A DNA stretch of 9,364 nucleotides from Nanopusillaceae archaeon (GCA_049973735.1 JBMFJL010000019.1:1-9364); one strand, 5' to 3'. Positions 1-9,364 are shown, counted from the first letter of the stretch. The notes: generated by a model from the letters alone, not told the origin. Translations and numbers: made by a program.

Positions 1-909
1 GTCAATATATGCTAATGCACCAGTTTTGCTATTCACTATGTCTCTTATTGTTGGATATGCCGATACTAGTGAATTTGTATCTATCTGACAATTTAATGTA
101 GCATTTTGTATTTTTACATTACCTATTGGACTGCAAGAAAATCCATTTTGACCATTTCTAACGGTAATTATGTTTTTACCAGCAACTATTTTTAATGTTG
201 GTTCTTCTATTTTAATGATCTTCTTATCAGGATCATCTACTCCACTAAAACATCCAGCTGCATCTTTAATTTGTAAAGCAAATGATAACAATCCATTATC
301 TCCTTTTATTTGCACATAGCTAGAGGAAGGTATAACTGGAGATGATGTAAAGTATACTGGTTGATTTTGACTTTGAGAATTTGTCAGTATAAAAGGTATC
401 TCTATTTTTGTGTATACATCTGTAATGTTATAATCTATTGTTAAAGTAATGGAAGCAGGTACTGTAGATAAACCGGCAGGTAAAGAAATTTTAATATTTC
501 CTAAAATATTCTGAACTGATTGTAGACTTCCATTAATGTATAGAGGAGGATTGGCTTCAAAAGTTCCAGAATCTGGCTCTACCGAGGCAATCGAATATAT
601 TTTATAACAAACCTTTGGATTATGTTCACCATCATACATACTATTATAATAATATAATTGTAGATTCGCATCTAGACCTGTAGATCGATTATATATCAAT
701 GGCGATGTGCTATTTATGCCAAATTGAATATTTCCTGCTTTATTTATAGCCCAAGATGGTTTTATAAAATTAGAATTGCCACCTAAATTTGGAATGGAGA
801 TAATTTCATTTGATCCACCTGAAGACCCTGTTGGACATGTTTCGAAATTAAACAATATTAATGTAAAAAGGGCAAACGACAATATCGATAATATTTTATT
901 TGCTTTCAT
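1..909 (-). CDS. Secreted/surface protein with hydrophobic N-terminal signal or anchor, Asn/Ser/Gly/Tyr-rich; 3'-partial (runs off left window edge); absent from supplied ORF track
   Basis: ATG = cat at 907..909. I hand-translated all 303 codons down to nt 1 and found no in-frame stop (no tta/cta/tca among the + strand triplets starting at nt 1). Product: MKANKILSILSFALFTLILFNFETCPTGSSGGSNEIISIPNLGGNSNFIKPSWAINKAGNIQFG...YINGSLQSVQNILGNIKISLPAGL...KIVAGKNIITVRNGQNGFSCSPIGNVKIQNATLNCQID.... The N-terminus is hydrophobic and K/E content is low compared with the cytoplasmic genes here. Five Cys and N-X-S/T sequons are present. A canonical TTTATATA box lies 23 nt upstream of the ATG. Confidence 0.8.
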   Translation of the reverse strand, partial: MKANKILSILSFALFTLILFNFETCPTGSSGGSNEIISIPNLGGNSNFIKPSWAINKAGNIQFGINSTSPLIYNRSTGLDANLQLYYYNSMYDGEHNPKVCYKIYSIASVEPDSGTFEANPPLYINGSLQSVQNILGNIKISLPAGLSTVPASITLTIDYNITDVYTKIEIPFILTNSQSQNQPVYFTSSPVIPSSSYVQIKGDNGLLSFALQIKDAAGCFSGVDDPDKKIIKIEEPTLKIVAGKNIITVRNGQNGFSCSPIGNVKIQNATLNCQIDTNSLVSAYPTIRDIVNSKTGALAYID

Positions 910-932
910 ATTCTTTAAAATGTTAGTTAAAT

Positions 933-940
933 TATATAAA
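933..940 (-). promoter_or_regulatory. Archaeal TATA box (TTTATATA) for the 1..909 gene; implies a leaderless mRNA
   Basis: The + strand tatataaa at 933..940 reads TTTATATA on the minus strand, matching the archaeal TATA consensus exactly. It sits directly after the TAG stop (942..944) of the upstream gene, with 23 nt between the box and the ATG at 909. That places the expected start site (about 26-27 nt from the box centre) at the ATG. Confidence 0.6.
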
Positions 941-941
941 T

Positions 942-2192
942 CTAACTTGCTTTGCTTGGATAGTATACTATGTTAGAAGAACCATAGAGCTTATAATCAT
1001 AATTAATACTTGAAACTACAGTTACAGTAGAATATTTTTGGAAATTATTCTCTGGAGTAATACATATTGGTATTGATACGACAAAATTTTGATTATTGTA
1101 TTTTAAATTATACAGATAATTATCATTTACACTTATATAGCAAGTATCTCCATTACAATTTAACTGATAAGAGTATTGATCACCACTAGAATATGTATTA
1201 ACACAATTCTGGCCATTTACATATGTAAGAGATATGTCATTGCCATGTTGGAATGTCAAAACTATTTTATTTATTTTTTCTACATTATTTAAAGGTCCAA
1301 ATTCTAATAAAAGTACGTCATAAGAATTCGAAGATCTTTGTAATAATATAGGATAACCACTTTGTGATCCTACTCTAGCCATTTTTATATAAGGTAAGCC
1401 TCCCACAGTATTATAATAATTAACATCGTATGCTCCCCTACTTAAATTTAAATATGAATATATATCTAAACCTTTTTCATTTGCCGATGATACAGTTTGA
1501 AGATCTACAACTAGAAAACTAAATCTGGTATTGCTTTGGAAGTTACTTAAAGTAGCTTCTAATTTATTTTCTATACTAAAACCATTGGCGAGATTACTAC
1601 ATTTTGATGTATCTATTTTCAATGATGGAATTTTACAAACAATTGTTATAACCTGTGAAGGGGATGAAATTGTATATTTATTGGGATTTGGTATATACAT
1701 GTCAGGAAGACCCTCAAAACAATCTTTTGACGAAGTTATATAATGACATATGAAACTTACAGATGGAGAATTTGCTATTACTGCAGAAGATAGGTTATAT
1801 GAAAATGTAAAGGTACTGGTAACTTCTGAAGCCCAATTATTCTGTATAATACCTGTTGTTTGTGATGATGGAGATATCTTGATATAATAAGTGCTATCGC
1901 TACTACTACCGCTGCTACCTGGCGTCTGGAAAATATCTGGTTGACTTACAAACATAGTTTCTTGTGCATATCCTGCAGGATCTGATATAACTTTATGAAC
2001 TAGCTGCAAAGAATTGTAGAATGATTTAAATGCATTGGAGATAGAACCTTTCAAATCAGTAGCATTAACGCCAAAAGTAGATGAAATATATCCCAATATT
2101 TGTTCTTTATAATTTAGCCAAATTATAATACCTATGGCTATTAAAATCAATAAGACAACTAGTGAAGAAGAGCCATCAGATTTTATTTTCAT
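942..2192 (-). CDS. Surface/secreted protein, 416 aa: short polar N-terminus, one hydrophobic helix (possible class III/prepilin-like signal or N-terminal anchor), Ser-rich linker, Cys-containing beta-rich ectodomain
   Basis: ATG start and TAG stop, beginning 1 nt after the upstream gene's stop. N-terminus MKIKSDGSSSLVVLLILIAIGIIIWLNY, where D-G followed by about 20 hydrophobic residues resembles a [KRDE][GA] prepilin cleavage context. Linker PGSSGSSSDS. The protein is rich in N/S/Y/T and poor in K/E. It has 10 Cys, clustered as in NGQNCVNTYSSGDQYSYQLNCNGDTCYISV, and sequons NAT and NLS. I recognise no known family. Confidence 0.8.
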   Translation of the reverse strand: MKIKSDGSSSLVVLLILIAIGIIIWLNYKEQILGYISSTFGVNATDLKGSISNAFKSFYNSLQLVHKVISDPAGYAQETMFVSQPDIFQTPGSSGSSSDSTYYIKISPSSQTTGIIQNNWASEVTSTFTFSYNLSSAVIANSPSVSFICHYITSSKDCFEGLPDMYIPNPNKYTISSPSQVITIVCKIPSLKIDTSKCSNLANGFSIENKLEATLSNFQSNTRFSFLVVDLQTVSSANEKGLDIYSYLNLSRGAYDVNYYNTVGGLPYIKMARVGSQSGYPILLQRSSNSYDVLLLEFGPLNNVEKINKIVLTFQHGNDISLTYVNGQNCVNTYSSGDQYSYQLNCNGDTCYISVNDNYLYNLKYNNQNFVVSIPICITPENNFQKYSTVTVVSSINYDYKLYGSSNIVYYPSKAS

Positions 2193-2193
2193 A

Positions 2194-3243
2194 TTAAGAT
2201 ATATATAAAGTGTATATGTTTAAATAATTATTTGGCCTTATCACTAGTAAATTTTGTGGTTCTAAACAATTTGATATGTTTATTGGAGATGGAGTGCTTG
2301 GAGATAGATAATATTGGCATTTTCCATTCAACGACATAAATCCATTTCCATCTACAACTATTGTTAATAGCTTATTCTTTAGATTGTTAGGAAATAGAAG
2401 ATAAAATATATTTTGATTAGATTCTATATACAAATCCTTTATAGTTATTGGATAATTGGATTTAAATGATATGAGATTATTTCCAGGTATTAAATAAGGG
2501 GAAATAAATAATTTATATGAACAACTGGTTAAAGGAATTGATATATTATTTATCAATAAACTAACTCCTTGTGGATTTCCTTCACAAAAATCATAGAATA
2601 AATATACATTACCAGAGGCATGATAATAATAAAAGCTTAGAGAAGAAGATTGCATATATTCTATTTCTATATTTTTTAATTCTCCATAAGAATTAGTAAA
2701 TATGCTGTTAGGTACAAATTCTATTTCTAATAAATTTTCTCCATTATTTAAGAAAATATGCGGAATAAATATATTAATTATACCATTTTCACATGTCGAA
2801 GATAGCTTTTTTCCATTTATATAAAAATTAAAGTATCCTCCTGAGCATGTTGATAATGCAGTTACATTTATACCTGTATATGGTTCATTAAATACAAAAT
2901 ATATGTTTATATTTTTTGATCCGTAGAAAACATTTGTAGAAAAACTATAACTTCCCATTGGTACTTTATAAACAGGTACAAAGGTTCCAATTTGATAATT
3001 TTTAGTAATATAGTAATATAATGAGCTATTTGACAAGATTATATTATTTAATGTTATGCTATAATATCCAGAATCTTCACCAATTAATCCATATTCGTAA
3101 TATGTCAGATTAGTACCATTCAATATTTCATGTAAAATTATCTTTTTTTGATGAGCTGGCAACAATATCCAATATACAAATATAGCTATACCGACTAGTA
3201 TAAAGAACAATCCTACAGCTCTTGTTTGAGATTTAATATTCAT
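2194..3243 (-). CDS. Surface/secreted protein, 349 aa, with prepilin-like (class III-like) N-terminus and three internal repeats of a xNG...C...L-x-x-G-x-N-L beta-sandwich-like module
   Basis: ATG start and TAA stop. N-terminus MNIKSQTRAVGLFFILVGIAIFVYWILL, where R-A then VGLFFILVGIAIF resembles archaellin/pilin KG/RA-xGIGTLIVFIA signals. The protein is N/S/Y-rich and carries sequons NGT, NLT, NSS, NVT and NIS. Eight Cys are spread through the ectodomain. Repeated modules: FYINGKKLSSTCENGIINIFIPHIFLNNGENLLEIEF, LLINNISIPLTSCSYKLFISPYLIPGNNLISF, SLNGKCQYYLSPSTPSPINISNCLEPQNLLVIR. Confidence 0.8.
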   Translation of the reverse strand: MNIKSQTRAVGLFFILVGIAIFVYWILLPAHQKKIILHEILNGTNLTYYEYGLIGEDSGYYSITLNNIILSNSSLYYYITKNYQIGTFVPVYKVPMGSYSFSTNVFYGSKNINIYFVFNEPYTGINVTALSTCSGGYFNFYINGKKLSSTCENGIINIFIPHIFLNNGENLLEIEFVPNSIFTNSYGELKNIEIEYMQSSSLSFYYYHASGNVYLFYDFCEGNPQGVSLLINNISIPLTSCSYKLFISPYLIPGNNLISFKSNYPITIKDLYIESNQNIFYLLFPNNLKNKLLTIVVDGNGFMSLNGKCQYYLSPSTPSPINISNCLEPQNLLVIRPNNYLNIYTLYIS

Positions 3244-3266
3244 AATCTATAATCATATTTTGATAT

Positions 3267-4280
3267 TTATATTTTATACCTGGCTTTTCCCACAATTCCA
3301 AACTTGTCAATCAATTCATAATTTTGTACATCTCTATATACAAAATATATTTTTGCATCAATATCATCCAAAACATTTAATAATTCTATAATCTTATTGA
3401 ATTCTTCAGATTCTTTTATTTTTCTAAAATAATCTTCTGAAATTAATACATATTCTACATTTCCATTCAATGCATTTTTATAAACTTCATCGAATCCGAA
3501 TAATATATAACCTTTATCCATTAAATATAAAATTTCATTAATTTTTTTGTTTAATTCTAATATTTCTAAGTCTTTTAATACATCCAAATATTCTGTTCTC
3601 CTGCTAAATTCATATATACCATTCTCCCCTCCCAATGAAACTTTAAATGTTAAAATTTTATCTACATCTACTTTATTTTCACAATACTCTTTAAATTTGT
3701 CTGGGTAGAATGCTGGTCCAACAATGCATAAGATTTTTGGCTTATATTCTTTAATTAGATTAACAAAATCCGAATATATATTATATAATTTAGATTCATA
3801 ATTTATATCGTCTTTTTTTATATTGATTTCTTCTGTTTTTAATATCTTTATCTCATTACTAATTATTCCAGCAGATATTTCATTACTATCTACTGAGATC
3901 ACCATTATATTTTTATCTTCTCTTTCAGACTCTTCTAAAATTTTTATTTCATATTTTTTAAAACCATTTTTTTTAGTTAAAATAAATTCAGATCCTTTTT
4001 TTATATCAAATGTATGATAATGTCCTACAACTTCATCGCTTGCCTCCAATATTCTTCCATTAACTCTTAAGGAATCTTTATATTCTGAAAATTTTATTTC
4101 TTCAACTTCTATCTTTATTCTTACTTTTATTTTTTCTTTTTCTTTTTCAAATTTTATTACTCTATAGTCTTCGCCCTCCAAAATATCGCCTTTATTTATT
4201 AATTTAAACAAATATATAAGATCTCTATCTCTTTCTACTTTTATTTTGATAGTTTTTTTATCTATTATACTATATTTCAT
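3267..4280 (-). CDS. pelA: Pelota (Dom34 homologue), mRNA surveillance / ribosome rescue factor
   Basis: 337 aa, a typical Pelota length. The N-terminal domain has the characteristic layout KIKVERDRDLIYLFKLINKGDILEG...RVNGRILEASDEVVGHYHTFDIKKGSEFILTKK, including the G-x-YHT-x-[DN]-I motif. It is followed by eRF1-like central and C-terminal domains. There is no GGQ motif, which argues against aRF1. ATG at 4278..4280 and TAA stop. Confidence 0.85.
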   Translation of the reverse strand: MKYSIIDKKTIKIKVERDRDLIYLFKLINKGDILEGEDYRVIKFEKEKEKIKVRIKIEVEEIKFSEYKDSLRVNGRILEASDEVVGHYHTFDIKKGSEFILTKKNGFKKYEIKILEESEREDKNIMVISVDSNEISAGIISNEIKILKTEEINIKKDDINYESKLYNIYSDFVNLIKEYKPKILCIVGPAFYPDKFKEYCENKVDVDKILTFKVSLGGENGIYEFSRRTEYLDVLKDLEILELNKKINEILYLMDKGYILFGFDEVYKNALNGNVEYVLISEDYFRKIKESEEFNKIIELLNVLDDIDAKIYFVYRDVQNYELIDKFGIVGKARYKI

Positions 4281-5278
4281 ATTATGTATGCTAATAATAA
4301 ACTGAGGAATATTGGCGGTACAAATGGAGCACCTTCAATAACTTTTACTTTAATATCATTGTTGCTTTCTTCTAATTTTTCCAATAATCTTATTTCTTCT
4401 ACAGATAATCCCGTTTCTCCAAAGAATAATCTATTTTGTAAAATAAATGCTAAAATTATATTGAAAATATAGGAAAGAAAAGAGATTAAAGAATAACCAA
4501 ATATAAAAAGTATTAGAGAAATTATATATAATAAAAAAAGCATTATTTTATACATTTTCTTATCTTTTCTCCTAAATTTTATAAAATATTTATCGTCAAT
4601 TTTAATTATATCAAAATATTTATTTAGTTCATCAAATATATCTTCCGATATATTAGTTACTATGATATCATCTTCTATCCAGTCTCCTTCAACCAATTCT
4701 TTTGGTCTTCTTTCAAATACCAATCTTTCTCTAAAATCTTTTTCAAATAATTTGAATACAAATAATGGTATATATACAAAAGCCAAGGAATATATAAGAT
4801 AATCTATTCTTAAAGTGTAGAAAAACAGGTAGAAGGTATAAATAGATATTATTAGTAAAAATATATTGAATAATGAAAGAGATAGAAACTTTTTATTTAT
4901 GTTCTTATAAACTTTTATAGCTTCTATGTTATGGAAGATAAATCCTATAATCATTAAAAATATAAAAAATAATAAGATTTTTGTTAAAGAAAGGTAGCCC
5001 AAAATAATAGAAATTATAAAGAAAAAATATAAATCACCTATAGCTAGTAATCTAAGTAGATATAGAGAATAGAAGAACAAAATTATTAAAATAGAAAGGA
5101 AAATGTTAGTTGGAAAAACATTTAATATCAAAACTAAGTATAGTGTATATGAAATATTGAATATAAAAAATAGATATATTATGAAATCGTCTATGGACTT
5201 GTATTTTATATCTTGATAAGAAGAGTAGAATAATATTGCAAAATCTACTAGCATAAGTGTCAACAAAGGATCAGACAT
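4277..5278 (-). CDS. Peptidase A24 family prepilin/prearchaellin signal peptidase (FlaK/PibD/EppA-type aspartyl protease), polytopic membrane protein with charged cytoplasmic insert
   Basis: 333 aa and very hydrophobic. First catalytic Asp context is YQDIKYKSIDDF (D23, nt 5210..5212); second is LLAIGDLYFF (D82, nt 5033..5035), a GxGD-like motif. The 59-residue spacing is close to the FlaK D18/D79 pair. A charged soluble insert (FEKDFRERLVFERRPKELVEGDWIEDD...KIDDKYFIKFRRKDKK) separates the membrane blocks, as in FlaK-type enzymes. The C-terminus has GAPFVPPIFLSLLLAY, the PF-x-P motif typical of A24 peptidases. The TGA stop overlaps the pelota ATG (ATGA at 4277..4280). Confidence 0.8.
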   Translation of the reverse strand: MSDPLLTLMLVDFAILFYSSYQDIKYKSIDDFIIYLFFIFNISYTLYLVLILNVFPTNIFLSILIILFFYSLYLLRLLAIGDLYFFFIISIILGYLSLTKILLFFIFLMIIGFIFHNIEAIKVYKNINKKFLSLSLFNIFLLIISIYTFYLFFYTLRIDYLIYSLAFVYIPLFVFKLFEKDFRERLVFERRPKELVEGDWIEDDIIVTNISEDIFDELNKYFDIIKIDDKYFIKFRRKDKKMYKIMLFLLYIISLILFIFGYSLISFLSYIFNIILAFILQNRLFFGETGLSVEEIRLLEKLEESNNDIKVKVIEGAPFVPPIFLSLLLAYII

Positions 5279-5283
5279 ATAAG

Positions 5284-5291
5284 TTTATTAA
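5284..5291 (+). promoter_or_regulatory. TATA-like box (TTTATTAA) positioned to drive the C/D box sRNA
   Basis: tttattaa at 5284..5291, with 22 nt between the box and the first base of the C box (G5314). AT-rich background makes chance matches likely, so confidence is moderate to low. Confidence 0.4.
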
Positions 5292-5302
5292 GTAATAAAT
5301 AA

Positions 5303-5310
5303 CTTATAAA
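5303..5310 (-). promoter_or_regulatory. TATA-like box (TTTATAAG) for the A24 peptidase / pelota transcription unit; leaderless start
   Basis: The + strand cttataaa at 5303..5310 reads TTTATAAG on the minus strand. 24 nt separate the box from the ATG at 5278, the same geometry as the other promoters in this window. Confidence 0.5.
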
Positions 5311-5313
5311 TTT

Positions 5314-5362
5314 GTGATGAGGTGAGCACCCCCTGATAAATGATGAAAGGAGTAGCTACTGA
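5314..5362 (+). ncRNA. Archaeal C/D box sRNA (2'-O-methylation guide), complete C-D'-C'-D architecture
   Basis: Read directly from the sequence: C box GUGAUGA 5314..5320; 12-nt guide GGUGAGCACCCC 5321..5332; D' box CUGA 5333..5336; 3-nt loop UAA; C' box AUGAUGA 5340..5346; 12-nt guide AAGGAGUAGCUA 5347..5358; D box CUGA 5359..5362. All four boxes match consensus and both spacers have the canonical 12-nt length. The total of about 49 nt is typical of archaeal sRNAs. It is intergenic and is the only GC-rich patch in the window. Confidence 0.9.
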
Positions 5363-5370
5363 TTTAAAAA
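5363..5370 (+). promoter_or_regulatory. TATA box (TTTAAAAA) for the 117-aa plus-strand gene, directly abutting the sRNA D box
   Basis: tttaaaaa at 5363..5370, with 22 nt between the box and the ATG at 5393, which predicts a leaderless mRNA. Confidence 0.5.
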
Positions 5371-5392
5371 TTACAAAGTTTCTTTTCTAATT

Positions 5393-5746
5393 ATGCCACT
5401 GATAATACCATCACCAGAATATATAAAATGGAGAAAGTTGATGAAAAGTAAAAAGAATGTTGAGGAGATGAAAAAGAAATTAAACAGTAGAATAGAGATA
5501 ATATTTAAGAAAGAAATAGATTTGAATGATTCCAATGAATTATATCAATTGGTAGATATAATAAAAGAATTAGAATTAAAAAACCTGTTAGATCATGTAT
5601 ATATAGTAAGGGAGGGAAAAGTGTTGGACAAGGGAGATTTATACTCTCTTGTAGGTATGAGAATTGATAAGGAAAAAATTAAAAAACTATATGATGTTGT
5701 ATCAAAGTTAGTAGATGTTGTAAATAAAATGAAAAAAATCTATTAG
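5393..5746 (+). CDS. Hypothetical small cytoplasmic protein, 117 aa, K/E-rich, no family recognised
   Basis: ATG start and TAG stop. A 117-codon open frame is unlikely by chance in DNA this AT-rich, where stop codons are frequent. Its composition (K, E, I, L, D, V) matches the genuine cytoplasmic proteins here, unlike the S/F/L-rich antisense shadow ORFs. It has a correctly spaced TATA box. Sequence: MPLIIPSPEYIKWRKLMKSKKNVEEMKKKL...HVYIVREGKVLDKGDLYSLVGMRIDKEKIKKLYDVVSKLVDVVNKMKKIY. Confidence 0.65.
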   Translation: MPLIIPSPEYIKWRKLMKSKKNVEEMKKKLNSRIEIIFKKEIDLNDSNELYQLVDIIKELELKNLLDHVYIVREGKVLDKGDLYSLVGMRIDKEKIKKLYDVVSKLVDVVNKMKKIY

Positions 5747-5759
5747 ATTATATTTTTTT
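5732..5759. terminator. Putative bidirectional terminator: A7 / T7 tracts flanking the overlapping convergent stop codons
   Basis: Sequence gAAAAAAAtctatTAGattataTTTTTTTc. The T7 tract at 5753..5759 lies 6 nt past the plus-strand TAG (5744..5746). The A7 tract at 5732..5738, which is T7 on the minus strand, lies 4 nt past the minus-strand TAA (5743..5745). Oligo-T tracts are the known archaeal termination signal. The two tracts could also pair as a 7-bp A:U stem around a 14-nt loop. Confidence 0.45.
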
Positions 5760-6900
5760 CCTTTAAGTTAATTGAATAAATAAGTTTTTTCAGTTTTTCT
5801 ATATCATTTTCAAGTATTTTTATCTTTTCAACTTCTGTAAATATATTTTCTAAATTTGTAACGTCGATTATACTTTCAATTTTTCTTAATCTGTCACTTA
5901 TTTCTCTATACTCTTCCATTAGATTTTCAGCCATATCTTTGAAATCTAAGATATCATATTTTAGTTTTTCTATCGTTGTTTTCATTTCTTTTATTTCATT
6001 TTCCAATTTTTCTATTTTTTCCAATTCTCCTTTTAATTCAGCTATATCTAGTATCTTGTTCTTTAACTCATAGGTAATATTTTGTAAATCCGATAAGAAA
6101 GTATAAAGTCCATTGAGTTTATTTTCAAAGTTAACATATTTTTCATATAAACTTTGTAAATTAGATAGTTGTTTTATGTTTTTAATATCAGATTTATCTA
6201 TTTCATTCAAATACTCTAATTTCTCTATCCTTTCTAATAATCTCTTTTCAATATCTTTTACCTTTCTATTTAAATCATTTATATCTTCTCTTATTTTTCC
6301 CAAATATTTTTCTTTTACTTCTTCTATTTCATTTTTATATTCGTCAAATTTAATCAATCCATCTATTATTTTGTTAATATTTTCTGAGAAAGTATTTGAT
6401 AATTTTTCAACTTCTTCTTTAATCTTTTGGAAATCTTCCTTTTTTACATAATCCTCCAGTATACTATTAACTTCAGTTGAAATATTCTTTACATCTTCCT
6501 GCAACCTCTCTATTTCATATATTTTGTATAGGTCATTTTCAATTTTATTTTCGAGTTCTTTTAATCTATTAGATAAATCATTTATTTTAGACCTTAATTC
6601 TAAAATATAAGAATAATCAACAAAATTTTTTATATTATTTTCGATTACATCAATCTTTAATTTTATATCTTGAATAGATTTAACGTTTTCATAGAAATCA
6701 TCATTTAAATATTTTTTGTATTTTTCTAACATATCCTGTAAATATTTTAATTCCTCGTTTATTCTGTTAATTTCTGTTATAAATTCTGTTTTCTCAACAT
6801 AATCCAGGAACCTCCTATTTACCTCGGAGAATCTTTCATTAACCTTTTTTATGTTTACCAACATCTGTTCGAATAGATCTAACTCTACCTTTTTATCCAT
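5743..6900 (-). CDS. Long all-alpha coiled-coil protein, 385 aa, no enzymatic motif, no signal peptide or TM segment
   Basis: ATG start and TAA stop. Heptad-like K/E/I/L/N composition runs end to end. There is no Walker A (GxxGxGK[ST]), so it is not Rad50/SMC. The motif D-Y-V-x-K-x-[ED]-F occurs twice, as DYVEKTEF (aa 33-40) and DYVKKEDF (aa 150-157), with degenerate copies DYSYILEL (aa 95-102) and EKYVNFEN (aa 253-260). This hints at repeated helical units. Confidence 0.75.
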   Translation of the reverse strand: MDKKVELDLFEQMLVNIKKVNERFSEVNRRFLDYVEKTEFITEINRINEELKYLQDMLEKYKKYLNDDFYENVKSIQDIKLKIDVIENNIKNFVDYSYILELRSKINDLSNRLKELENKIENDLYKIYEIERLQEDVKNISTEVNSILEDYVKKEDFQKIKEEVEKLSNTFSENINKIIDGLIKFDEYKNEIEEVKEKYLGKIREDINDLNRKVKDIEKRLLERIEKLEYLNEIDKSDIKNIKQLSNLQSLYEKYVNFENKLNGLYTFLSDLQNITYELKNKILDIAELKGELEKIEKLENEIKEMKTTIEKLKYDILDFKDMAENLMEEYREISDRLRKIESIIDVTNLENIFTEVEKIKILENDIEKLKKLIYSINLKEKNII

Positions 6901-6940: not shown

Positions 6941-7255
6941 TTATTCCTTTATCATATTTCTTTTTATATCCGTTATTTCTTTAGATAAAATTTCTACTTT
7001 AATTTCTAAATCGTATATCTTTTTCTTTATAGTTTTTATTTCTTCTAATTTTTCAGATAGAATGTTTAATATGTTTCTAGTTTCTATAATAAGATCTTCT
7101 AATTCTTTTTTTCTGCCTAATAGATCTTTAAGTTTCAAAAATTCAAGCATTAAAGTGTCTTTTGAAGTTTTATACTTTTTAATTTGCTCTTTTAGTTCTT
7201 TTAAATTATTTTCTAAATTTTCTATAATTTTCTCATATTCAGTTATATCTTCCAT
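6941..7255 (-). CDS. Small coiled-coil protein, 104 aa, tightly coupled to polB (1-nt gap)
   Basis: The ATG at 7253..7255 follows the polB TAA (7257..7259) after a single nucleotide; TAA stop. Sequence MEDITEYEKIIENLENNLKELKEQIKKYKTSKDTLMLEFLKLKDLLGRKKELEDLIIETRNILNILSEKLEEIKTIKKKIYDLEIKVEILSKEITDIKRNMIKE. It looks like two long helices with a short central break. No family recognised. Confidence 0.7.
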   Translation of the reverse strand: MEDITEYEKIIENLENNLKELKEQIKKYKTSKDTLMLEFLKLKDLLGRKKELEDLIIETRNILNILSEKLEEIKTIKKKIYDLEIKVEILSKEITDIKRNMIKE

Positions 7256-7256
7256 A

Positions 7257-9364
7257 TTATTTAAAGAATGATAAGATATTTTTTTGTTGTTTTCCTATAC
7301 TATCTACCGGTATGTTAAGTGCTTTCAATATTGGTTCTACTGCCGGTATCACCTGTTTATATATATAATAATCAGGATCGTATTCATTATCCCTTATCTC
7401 ATCAGGTAATCTTACTTTATCAGAGATCTTTTCTCCACCTTTAGATATAATATATTCAACAATGAATCCTTTTCCTACTTTATAACCCCTCTCTTTATAT
7501 TTTTTTGCTGCAATAACATGTGGAGCTGTAATTTCATAGTCTGATAAATCTTTTCTTAGTTGTTCTCTAAGTATGAATTTCTCTTTTGGATATACATGAT
7601 TTCTTATATTTTTTATCACTTCTTCTAAATATTTTTTAATTTCTTCTATTTTTCCTTCTAGTGCATATCTTAATACAGTCTCTTGTACCTCTCCTGCTAT
7701 ATCGGACCAGTCTCTTCTTACTACTTCAAATCCCCTGAGTTTTATATTTTTATTTTCCGATAATAATGCGTATTTTTTTCTTGCTCCTCCCTCTCCATGT
7801 CTCCTCTCGACAAAAATTCCAGATATATAAAAATCTTCGAGTTCCATTTCTAAAGGTTTAGGTAATATATTATTTACTTCTTTTAATAGATTTATACTAT
7901 CTTCTCTATTTTTAACTAGAACAAATATAGAGTCTGTATCTCCATATATAGTTTTATATCCTTTTTTTTCAAAGAATTCTTTAGCTTCTTCAATATGTTT
8001 TCTACCCAATGCAGTAATTGCTGCAGCACATTGTAAACAATACCATCTAGAATTTGGGAATCCCAAATAACCATAAGCAGAATTTATTATATATTTAAGA
8101 GCCAATTGTTTACTATCCAAAATTTTATACTCTTCGCTATCTTTGTCCAAATTTTTCATTTTTTTCTTTATTTCAGCTCTTTCCTCAAATATATTTTCTA
8201 AAATTTCTGAAATAAAACCTTTTTTCTTTTTACAAAACCAAACTTCTTCTTTTCCTAAACTTGTTTCTATCATTATTTTTTCATTTTTGCATTCATCATG
8301 TTCACATTTTAAAGTATCAGGCGATATGTTATACCTTATTATTATTGATGGATATAGAGATCTAAAGTCGTATACAGCAATATTTTTATACAAACCGGCT
8401 TTAGGTTCAAAAACTAGTGCACCAATATAAGATATTTTTTTTCTTTCTTCTACTTCATTTGGTTTTGGCCTATTTGGTATTATTTCATTAAAGTCCCTTA
8501 CCTTTTTTATTAAATAGTTTTCAACTAGCATTCCATAAGTACTTCCAGATAATTCATAAAGTGTAATTCCAACTAGCCTAGAAATTTCTAATAATGTATT
8601 TTCAAAATATTTATACAATTTATATGTTAATTCTGCATCTTTTTGATTATAATGTATTAAATAATTAAAATCTTTTGTATTATGTATTATTTTTGTCATT
8701 AAATTTATGTCCATATCTAATTTTCTCTCTTTTAATATTTCCCAAGAGACTTCATCTAGCGAATACGTTTCAGAATTTAATTGTGGTGCAAATATTCCAG
8801 AAACTATGTCATACAAATCTACATGTTGTATTCCGATGATTCTGTACTTTCTATCTTCTTCTCTTTTCTTAGTATACATTATTCCACTACCATCCCATCC
8901 AAAATCAAATGTAAAATTTAATTTTTTTGCCCTTTCGTATAGAAAATAAAAATCAAAATTATTAGAATTATATCCTACTATTACATCTGGATCTAATTCC
9001 TTTATTAAATCGTTTAATTTTTTTAATAATTCTAGTTCATTGTTAACTTTTATACCTTCATTCGCATTTCCCTTCCAATAAATTGAATAAAATTTTTTTC
9101 CGTCGTATATTGATATCAAATATATTGGTTCTTTTTCTGGCGACGGTATTGCTTTTTCAGATACAGTTTCAATATCTAATGATATAACTTTTAGATTATG
9201 TTTTTCATTTTCTAAAACTTTATTTACTTTTTTAAGTTTATAAAAATCTATTTTTTCGCTACTTTTTATTAATTCAAGATCCAAATCATACCAAAATAAT
9301 GGGTAAATATTATTATCTATTTGGAATTTTTTTATTATTGTTAGATCTCCTTCTTTTATTCCGA
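7257..9364 (-). CDS. polB: Family B DNA polymerase (archaeal replicative PolB), 5'-partial: frame continues past the right window edge
   Basis: All exonuclease motifs are present: Exo I LDIETV, Exo II NSNNFDFYFLYERA, Exo III YNQKDAELTYKLY. All polymerase motifs are present: motif A VYDFRSLYPSIIIRYNISPDT, motif B KQLALKYIINSAYGYLG, motif C IYGDTDSIFV, and KKYA (ARKKYALL). A Cys cluster after motif A (LKCEHDECK...WFCKKKKGF) sits where Tgo/Pfu-type enzymes have a disulfide. Motif C is uninterrupted, so there is no intein. The track's start at 9284 is a TTG. I translated the same frame upstream to nt 9364 with no stop: ...GIKEGDLTIIKKFQIDNNIYPLFWYD-LDLELIK. Confidence 0.95.
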   Translation of the reverse strand, partial: GIKEGDLTIIKKFQIDNNIYPLFWYDLDLELIKSSEKIDFYKLKKVNKVLENEKHNLKVISLDIETVSEKAIPSPEKEPIYLISIYDGKKFYSIYWKGNANEGIKVNNELELLKKLNDLIKELDPDVIVGYNSNNFDFYFLYERAKKLNFTFDFGWDGSGIMYTKKREEDRKYRIIGIQHVDLYDIVSGIFAPQLNSETYSLDEVSWEILKERKLDMDINLMTKIIHNTKDFNYLIHYNQKDAELTYKLYKYFENTLLEISRLVGITLYELSGSTYGMLVENYLIKKVRDFNEIIPNRPKPNEVEERKKISYIGALVFEPKAGLYKNIAVYDFRSLYPSIIIRYNISPDTLKCEHDECKNEKIMIETSLGKEEVWFCKKKKGFISEILENIFEERAEIKKKMKNLDKDSEEYKILDSKQLALKYIINSAYGYLGFPNSRWYCLQCAAAITALGRKHIEEAKEFFEKKGYKTIYGDTDSIFVLVKNREDSINLLKEVNNILPKPLEMELEDFYISGIFVERRHGEGGARKKYALLSENKNIKLRGFEVVRRDWSDIAGEVQETVLRYALEGKIEEIKKYLEEVIKNIRNHVYPKEKFILREQLRKDLSDYEITAPHVIAAKKYKERGYKVGKGFIVEYIISKGGEKISDKVRLPDEIRDNEYDPDYYIYKQVIPAVEPILKALNIPVDSIGKQQKNILSFFK

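Follow-up and report, generated by a model that had tools for sequence, protein, structure and literature searches.

Does a prepilin peptidase gene at the head of a run of surface-protein genes mark a filament system? The question is raised by a 9,364-nucleotide (nt) stretch of DNA from a Nanopusillaceae archaeon (GCA_049973735.1 JBMFJL010000019.1:1-9364), referred to here as the window, which is the entire contig of a terrestrial nanoarchaeon and has a G+C content of ~25%. Positions 1-5278 encode an A24-type peptidase, the ribosome-rescue factor pelota and three surface proteins, here named F1, F2 and F3; in relatives a fourth, F4, of 278-288 amino acids (aa), comes after F3. An earlier reading, made from this DNA without database searches (the sequence-only reading), saw here a candidate archaeal surface filament or adhesion system. 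We suggest instead, with a probability of roughly 0.6, that the locus is a conserved nanoarchaeal mixed operon and not a pilus locus: the peptidase would serve an archaellum encoded elsewhere, and F1-F4 would be ordinary tethered envelope proteins.

The five genes of the window that matter most for this question are, from left to right:

1-909, minus strand: F3, at least 303 aa; predicted signal peptide at aa 1-24 (nt 838-909), Cys25 at nt 835-837
942-2192, minus strand: F2, 416 aa; predicted N-terminal anchor at aa 8-26 (nt 2115-2171)
2194-3243, minus strand: F1, 349 aa; predicted N-terminal anchor at aa 10-28 (nt 3160-3216); six Cys
3267-4280, minus strand: pelota (aPelota/Dom34), ribosome-rescue factor, 337 aa
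4277-5278, minus strand: A24-type peptidase, 333 aa; assigned by profile methods and both catalytic Asp

Listing and translation of the open reading frames (ORFs) bear out the earlier description of five co-directional minus-strand genes, and the coordinates give the gaps of 23, 1 and 32 nt that had been read around the three surface-protein genes. The F3 ORF, with 303 codons, leaves the window at its left end; sequence beyond the ends of the contig was read from the loci of relatives, namely L001, L003, L006, L007 (YN1), L009, L010/L011 and L012, with L015 as a canonical A24 locus. Pelota matches PF03463 (eRF1_1; 67 bits, E 1.7e-18) and PF03465 (eRF1_3; 30.7 bits, E 4.6e-7), both above the cut-offs, and TIGR00111 at E 4.9e-25, under the equivalog cut-off.

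The composition of F1-F3 is indeed the inverse of that of the cytoplasmic proteins. N, S, T, Y and G together make up 39-44% of their residues against 18-26% in the cytoplasmic proteins, and K plus E 7.5-8.3% against 23-37%. Each protein has 5-8 Cys and 3-6 N-X-S/T sequons. By these features F1-F3 look exported and disulfide-bonded. The guess that the organism is a nanoarchaeon also proves right, as the F1 family has 11 members and all of their named sources are Nanopusillaceae or Nanopusillus.

A divergent class III signal peptidase

The first gene is, as judged from profile comparisons, a very divergent A24 class III signal peptidase of the FlaK/PibD/ArlK type, with predicted leader cleavage. 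Both catalytic Asp motifs noted for it earlier are confirmed at the codon level: D23 (5210-5212) lies in YQDIKYKS and D82 (5033-5035) in AIGD, and both are invariant across 11 orthologues. The A24 assignment itself stands by the family profile and by hhalign, but such profile methods are required: the single-sequence Pfam scan gives Peptidase_A24 22.2 bits (E=2e-4), below the gathering score of 26.5 bits. The single-sequence NCBIfam scan is likewise under threshold or empty, a PDB search with the sequence finds nothing significant, and a three-sequence profile reaches FlaK (3s0x) marginally, at E=1.4.

When searched against 5.8 billion sequences, the family profile gathers ~45 orthologues together with one Arc_PepC (PF06819) and four Peptidase_A24 (PF01478) proteins, which are reached at E 6e-16 to 1e-6. 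The ~45 orthologues have no precomputed Pfam hits and are labelled 'hypothetical' or 'putative membrane protein' (Nanobsidianus stetteri, YN1_0370); the N. acidilobi orthologue, Nps_02085, appears in the gene table as 'Uncharacterized membrane protein, 7 TMD' with no arCOG. The hhalign alignment of 11 orthologues to the four PF01478 proteins (99.4%, E 4e-21) is full length, covering 238 columns. It pairs QD...V/I.D (D23), AIGD with GGGD (D82), the LVEGDW domain, a GLS..[ED]I..L[KE]K motif and the EG[AI]PFVP C-terminal helix, whose motif reads EGAPFVP in the window. Inside the LVEGDW soluble domain there is a ~45-residue hydrophobic insertion that is predicted to span the membrane.

Substrates for such an enzyme exist elsewhere. 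A 2016 census of type IV filament (TFF) systems in archaea reported the peptidase as missing from two nanoarchaeal genomes (PMC4858521). Nst1 has two archaellins as well as FlaD/E, F, G, H, I and J, with FlaK unlisted (Podar et al., PMC3655853), and for YN1, whose archaella are visible, the set is FlaBDEHIJF (PMC11420986). The archaellum genes of N. acidilobi (Nps_00925-00940) lie far from the block discussed here (Nps_02065-02085). The archaellum genes are thus located elsewhere in these genomes, and the peptidase therefore has obvious substrates outside the block. Terrestrial nanoarchaea would then have their class III signal peptidase in this gene, which would close an annotation gap, as archaellated nanoarchaea need such an enzyme.

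Public gene calls of this family can be short. The L012 peptidase (5045-5854) is N-terminally truncated, its called start skipping the first catalytic Asp motif, and an upstream in-frame Met (MLLEIMTFVALIIATLQDIKMKS..., region 4892-5044) brings this motif back. Genes g3 and g4 of L014 likewise look N-terminally truncated.

The canonical locus L015 (4365-13885) is distant and DPANN-like. Its PF01478 peptidase, P0074, stands beside a 758-aa T2SSE ATPase and a 716-aa protein with multiple transmembrane (TM) helices, and the divergent genes on its other side encode two lipobox proteins (LIGC, FGGC) and a multi-TM protein of 374 aa. This locus was set aside as evidence of linkage: no relationship is detected between the 374-aa protein and F2, and the match of the lipoproteins to F4 is borderline (E 0.004).

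F1 and F2 are probably anchored proteins rather than pilins

The sequence-only reading pointed to a hydrophobic segment near the N-terminus of each surface protein and, in two of them, to an [RD]-[AG] dipeptide just ahead of it (TR-A and SD-G), the context cleaved by class III signal peptidases. The segment is present in all three, but in the third, F3, it is the hydrophobic (h-) region of a signal peptide, ends at Cys25 and is not pilin-like. The dipeptides are present in the window but are not conserved in orthologues, and so are not more than chance would give. A FlaFind-like class III pattern, after Szabo et al. 2007, matches none of 15 F1 members and one of 19 F2 members.

In F1 the residues before the helix vary (TRA/VGL, VAT/IGI, TTG/LGI, MMVG/L, MVG/I, LMVVG/I and QVA/TIG, the slash marking where the helix begins; TIIA/WFT and MRIWAFF in distant relatives), and position -2 is hydrophobic (V/I/L). 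A more distant member, in L012, is found at E 1.6e-23. The AlphaFold model, built from an 11-sequence alignment, has a mean predicted local distance difference test (pLDDT) value of 83. A helix at residues 3-27 is followed by Pro29 and a short amphipathic helix (30-41). Residues 38-58 have pLDDT below 50 and coincide with an indel-rich stalk, rich in S, T and N, in which 0 of 29 positions are invariant. Beyond the stalk the model has two lectin-like jelly-roll beta-sandwiches. Foldseek searches of PDB and BFVD return galactose-binding-domain-like, CUB, F5/8-C, BcsB, reelin and tail-lectin jelly-rolls, at TM-scores of at most 0.25. From this model, F1 is best described as a type II anchored, stalked protein with a lectin-like ectodomain.

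For F2, a word-indexed search gives a single match, a 98%-identical fragment; an exhaustive phmmer search finds 16 proteins among 1.84 billion representatives, and a metagenome scan with the F2 alignment finds nothing beyond the L001 contig. Five invariant Cys are common to the F2 family, as is a conserved juxtamembrane helix that bears an NPxxY-like motif, and the family occurs in several forms. The short form has one hydrophobic helix after 2-27 residues; the relatives P0017 and P0020 each have two hydrophobic stretches, as read from sequence. In the long forms (P0022, 537 aa; P0024, 650 aa; L009, 622 aa, 13051-14919; L006, 808 aa, 11059-13485) a cytoplasmic coiled-coil/PQ-rich region of ~80-350 residues precedes 2-3 predicted TM helices and the same ectodomain. 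As a large, multi-pass cytoplasmic domain can take the place of the leader, we read the F2 helix as an anchor and not as a class III signal. Two lineages have lost the ectodomain and keep as a stub only the TM helix and the NPxxY juxtamembrane helix: L003 (109 aa, 11192-11521) and L007 (168 aa, 13062-13568), the latter in the complete YN1 genome. The TM-proximal part of F2 may thus be the conserved functional core, with a dispensable ectodomain. The AlphaFold 2 model (pLDDT 83) shows a tandem immunoglobulin-like (Ig-like) beta-sandwich ectodomain, and its Foldseek matches are generic (integrin alpha legs, transglutaminase C-terminal barrels, Als/MSCRAMM adhesins and RbmA; TM-score at most 0.21).

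Could F1 and F2 nevertheless be large non-canonical class III substrates, cleaved by the A24 peptidase and forming a filament or a pilus-tip adhesin for host attachment? We regard this as very unlikely. The beta-sandwich ectodomains are adhesin-like, but a pilin fold is not matched: no pilin or archaellin is found among the top 50 PDB matches of F1 and F2. The F1 N-terminal helix is strongly conserved and G or A often stands immediately ahead of it, yet a conserved [KR]-[GA] site is lacking, position -2 is hydrophobic, and some members have leaders of 1-3 residues or none. The stalk that follows is disordered and variable, and not a continuous alpha-1 helix packed on a globular domain. For F2, such processing is hard to combine with long forms in which 2-3 predicted TM helices follow cytoplasmic domains of 80-350 residues, or with the two lineages that retain a TM-plus-helix stub. 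Deep nanoarchaeal lineages do share the linkage to the peptidase, but an ATPase or platform gene is missing from the block. Beyond the left edge of the window, too, where such genes might have been expected, no assembly ATPase or platform gene is found near the block in L001, L003, L006, L007, L009, L010 or L012; FlaI/PilB and FlaJ/TadC are absent within 6-10 kb of it, as far as the contigs of these seven loci allowed. A 339-aa ATPase that lies nearby, upstream in relatives, was considered as a PilB/FlaI candidate and rejected: it belongs to the generic AAA_22/ATPase_2 type, and its T2SSE match is confined to the P-loop. For F1-F3, neither class III processing nor pilin identity nor a filament is supported.

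F3 and F4 are predicted lipoproteins

F3 and F4 are predicted from sequence features to be lipobox lipoproteins, modified with lipid at a Cys. In the window, F3 has a G/S/T-rich tether after Cys25 and then a beta-rich ectodomain, and Cys25 is invariant in the orthologue alignment; the orthologues have 309-324 aa, so that ~20 residues are missing from the window copy. All 13 full-length proteins of F3, F4 and a related family, F5, have a basic n-region, an h-region of 15-18 residues, a first Cys at residues 18-25 directly past the h-region, and a G/S/T/Q-rich tether following it. The total number of Cys is odd (5, 7 or 9) in 12 of the 13, which fits a first Cys that carries lipid and others that form pairs. 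F3 would therefore be an ordinary Sec/signal peptidase II-type protein, an outcome that the sequence-only reading had itself listed as telling against its hypothesis.

The lipobox is degenerate in the Nanopusillaceae, whose G+C content is ~22-29% (FETC, MSC, FSTC, FQSC, LSC, FSC; window F3 has F-E-T-C), and canonical or nearly so in relatives of higher G+C content (LAGC twice and FAGC in L012; TLGC twice, L010 included). Nanopusillaceae F3 aligns with the distant F3 group at 97.5% in hhalign (E 7e-12); distant F3 against F4 gives 79.7%, which is suggestive only. Within the Nanopusillaceae no relatedness is detected between F1 and F2 or between F3 and F4. Both lipoproteins and the lipidation enzyme AliA are reportedly widespread among DPANN (PMC12462473).

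That F1-F3 were not recognisable as known families is borne out, as none has a Pfam, NCBIfam or PDB-sequence match. Membership in an S-layer or solute-binding family, which would have told against a new surface system, is not found either: F1-F4 and their profiles match nothing in Pfam, NCBIfam or PDB.

The neighbourhood of lipobox proteins raises another possibility, that the lipoprotein signal peptidase still missing in archaea (an Lsp analogue) is this A24-like protease, which would mature F3 and F4. We consider this extremely improbable. Two to three lipobox proteins come after the peptidase in every full-block lineage, but at this locus the peptidase is also kept without F3/F4 (YN1) or with F3 only (L003). 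The canonical A24 gene of L015 likewise adjoins two lipobox proteins, yet it also adjoins the T2SSE ATPase. The catalytic Asp loops bear K/R and lie past TM1 as in FlaK, which points to an active site at the cytoplasmic face; the topology of A24 enzymes is established, and cleavage of a lipobox takes place at the outer face. Moreover, a class III enzyme is needed for the archaellins of these genomes. In favour of the idea, no archaeal Lsp has been identified (PMC12462473).

With two families of the lipobox type and two anchored, a peptidase gene plus N-terminal helices is insufficient for calling pilins here.

Conservation of the block

The linkage of the surface-protein genes to the peptidase, which the sequence-only reading had named as a test of its hypothesis, is conserved in related and in distant nanoarchaeal lineages. 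In the Nanopusillaceae ~20 kb are syntenic: RtcB, PolB, two coiled-coil genes, a small gene on the opposite strand, peptidase, pelota, F1 and a variable slot, followed by aIF2-alpha, Nop10, PAC2 and further genes. The slot differs between loci:

Window: F2 + F3
L001: F2 + F3 + F4
L003: F2 stub + F3
L006: 808-aa F2 + F3 + F4
L009: 622-aa F2 + F3 + F4
L007 (YN1): F2 stub only

The distant lineages have other surroundings. In L010/L011 (30% G+C, pelota 36% identical) the flanks are wholly different (S8e, LSM, exosome genes ... S6e), and in L012 (34.5% G+C, pelota 40% identical) the upstream flank differs (FtsZ, Spt5). Both L010 and L012 keep the small gene on the opposite strand, peptidase, pelota, F1, F2 and lipoproteins with order, orientation and 4-nt overlap unchanged, where F1 and F2 of L010 are assigned by position and architecture, their profile scores being weak. 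The block is better conserved than its surroundings. Its surface proteins evolve fast: between lineages F1-F3 are 26-36% identical where pelota is 40-56% identical.

In six of seven lineages, 4 nt (ATGA; 4277-4280 in the window) belong both to the end of the peptidase gene and to the beginning of pelota; L006 has a 3-nt gap. At the sequence level the overlap implies that a membrane protease and a ribosome-rescue factor are putatively coupled in translation, and that this coupling is conserved.

Is the block then a functional unit? The A24 protease could act on or assemble with the F1/F2 anchors (release, maturation or quality control), and F1-F4 could form one membrane-tethered complex, possibly a part of the attachment organelle seen in Nanobdellota. 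Frozen synteny is insufficient to dismiss the linkage, because in L010 and L012 the seven-gene block stays intact amid different flanks; on the other hand, co-location alone is no proof of shared function, because the block includes the housekeeping gene pelota. The 4-nt overlap and the tight spacing are conserved, and so are the TM and juxtamembrane segments of F1/F2, also in lineages without the F2 ectodomain. What the attachment organelle is made of is not known (PMC11420986), but YN1 builds it with only F1 and the F2 stub at this locus. For A24 enzymes, no activity other than the cleavage of class III leaders is known. Overall we judge this explanation unlikely, and a real functional coupling of the protease with the anchored proteins has a similarly low chance. 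A bolder form, in which the block is a dedicated envelope system whose protease matures or regulates F1/F2 as non-canonical anchored substrates, these and the lipoproteins being part of the host-contact apparatus of Nanobdellota, with a still bolder variant in which the protease doubles as Lsp, is distinctly unlikely in our view.

Promoter-like boxes

Three TATA-like boxes stand at a similar distance from start codons: TTTATAAG at 5303-5310 (minus strand), 24 nt ahead of the peptidase ATG; TTTAAAAA at 5363-5370 (plus strand), 22 nt ahead of the ATG of the small gene; and TTTATATA at 933-940 (minus strand), 23 nt ahead of the F3 ATG. As the minus strand has one TTTAWAWR in every 490 nt or so, this spacing of 22-24 nt is unlikely to have arisen by chance. 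No TTTAWAWR box at that spacing is found ahead of pelota, F1 or F2. The pattern suggests leaderless units, peptidase-pelota-F1-F2 and F3 (with F4), in which the boxes would act as promoters.

Neighbouring genes

The remainder of the window contains:

5279-5392, no strand: divergent intergenic region with TATA-like boxes
5393-5746, plus strand: small protein, 117 aa, function unassigned; divergent from the peptidase; N-terminus M-[PA]-x-I-I-P
5743-6900 and 6941-7255, minus strand: two K/E-rich coiled-coil proteins, 385 aa and 104 aa, between PolB and the block
7257-9364, minus strand: PolB (family B DNA polymerase), frame 2 open to base 9364; matches YN1 PolB

The small protein occupies the same position and orientation in seven lineages, with BLAST E from 1e-29 to 5e-4 (L003 7504-7860, L006 7489-7854, L007 9531-9887, L009 9513-9878, L010 9534-9878 and L012 4515-4889). 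It has 114-124 aa, is basic and is always divergent from the peptidase, even where the flanks differ; it has no Pfam or PDB match.

PolB leaves the window at the right end, and comparison with YN1 PolB indicates that ~105 N-terminal residues are missing. A 675-aa PolB ORF with a TTG start is an artefact of ORF listing, as the gene continues past the right end. The two coiled-coil proteins beside PolB are conserved in the Nanopusillaceae. The larger is annotated in N. acidilobi as 'Chromosome segregation ATPase' (Nps_02095) and has spectral rank 44 in the proteome; no ATPase domain is found in it, its matches being confined to coiled coils (SMC/Rad50 arms). Scans for tRNA and Rfam families find no RNA genes in the window.

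A model for the locus

We suggest the following scenario. The peptidase, its translation coupled to that of pelota, would process substrates from other loci of the genome, namely archaellins and any true pilins. F1-F4 would reach the outer face of the membrane by way of Sec and stay tethered there. F1 and F2 would retain an uncleaved N-terminal TM anchor, so that F1 could present a flexible, glycosylatable stalk with two lectin-like jelly-rolls, and F2 a juxtamembrane helix with disulfide-bonded Ig-like sandwiches; F3 and F4 would be tethered as lipoproteins through the lipobox Cys. Together F1-F4 would form a fast-evolving cell-envelope or host-contact set, for glycan binding or adhesion, in an ectosymbiont. 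Such a glycan-binding, adhesion or host-contact role is plausible from the modelled folds and the lifestyle, and an envelope or host-contact function of the block is probable. YN1, the builder of a large attachment organelle, holds only F1 and the F2 stub at this locus.

Several observations weigh against this scenario. That the block is intact in L010 and L012 hints that its products are functionally coupled with the peptidase. No part of F1 is better conserved than the helix, with 8 of 33 positions invariant against 33 of 287 in the ectodomain, as in pilins, and a small residue (G or A) often precedes it; the conserved helix may instead reflect an interaction within the membrane. Makarova et al. 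2016 describe nanoarchaeal pilins for one TFF ATPase clade as unidentified (PMC4858521), so that substrates beyond the known ones may exist. The block products are undetected in the shotgun proteome of N. acidilobi. Finally, the low TM-scores of the F1 and F2 Foldseek matches (at most 0.25) indicate fold class only.

Under the scenario of a mixed operon, the locus defines four small, lineage-restricted families of membrane-tethered, fast-evolving ectodomain proteins, within a block that deep nanoarchaeal lineages have kept. In obligate ectosymbionts with a molecularly undescribed attachment machinery, these families make reasonable candidates for an envelope function or for host contact.

Comparison with known systems

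F1 and F2 share with type IV pilins and archaellins (FlaB/ArlB, Aap, Ups, Epd) a single N-terminal helix and beta-sandwiches. Unlike these, they have no conserved cleavage motif and no structural match to them, they are larger (350-800 aa against ~100-250), a flexible stalk follows the F1 helix, F2 has variants with multi-TM/cytoplasmic N-termini, and no ATPase or platform gene adjoins them.

A second comparison is with lectin- and Ig-like surface adhesins, that is, galactose-binding/CUB jelly-rolls and the sandwiches of integrin legs, Als and MSCRAMM. The F1 and F2 ectodomains share their fold class, and like them are Cys-rich, sequon-bearing and fast-evolving. However, the resemblance is generic (6-13% identity), with no sequence homology and no identified ligand-binding motif.

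F3 and F4 resemble the archaeal lipobox lipoproteins (haloarchaeal/DPANN Sec/Tat; AliA/AliB) in n-region, h-region, Cys and tether. They differ from lipoproteins with the canonical lipobox [LVI][ASTVI][GAS]C in the degenerate motif of the Nanopusillaceae and in belonging to families without a Pfam match.

The closest relationship is that of the peptidase to FlaK/ArlK and PibD (MEROPS A24B; PF01478 with PF06819, Arc_PepC, as C-terminal domain). It is an equally polytopic membrane protein, with the first Asp just past TM1 (QDxxxxxV/I-D), the second in a GxGD-type motif, an LVEGDW soluble domain and the EG[AI]PFVP C-terminal helix. In contrast to FlaK and PibD, the second motif of the nanoarchaeal enzyme is AIGD and not GGGD, its length is 324-333 aa against 242-284 aa, a hydrophobic insertion splits its C-terminal soluble domain, and its gene is coupled to pelota instead of to TFF assembly genes.

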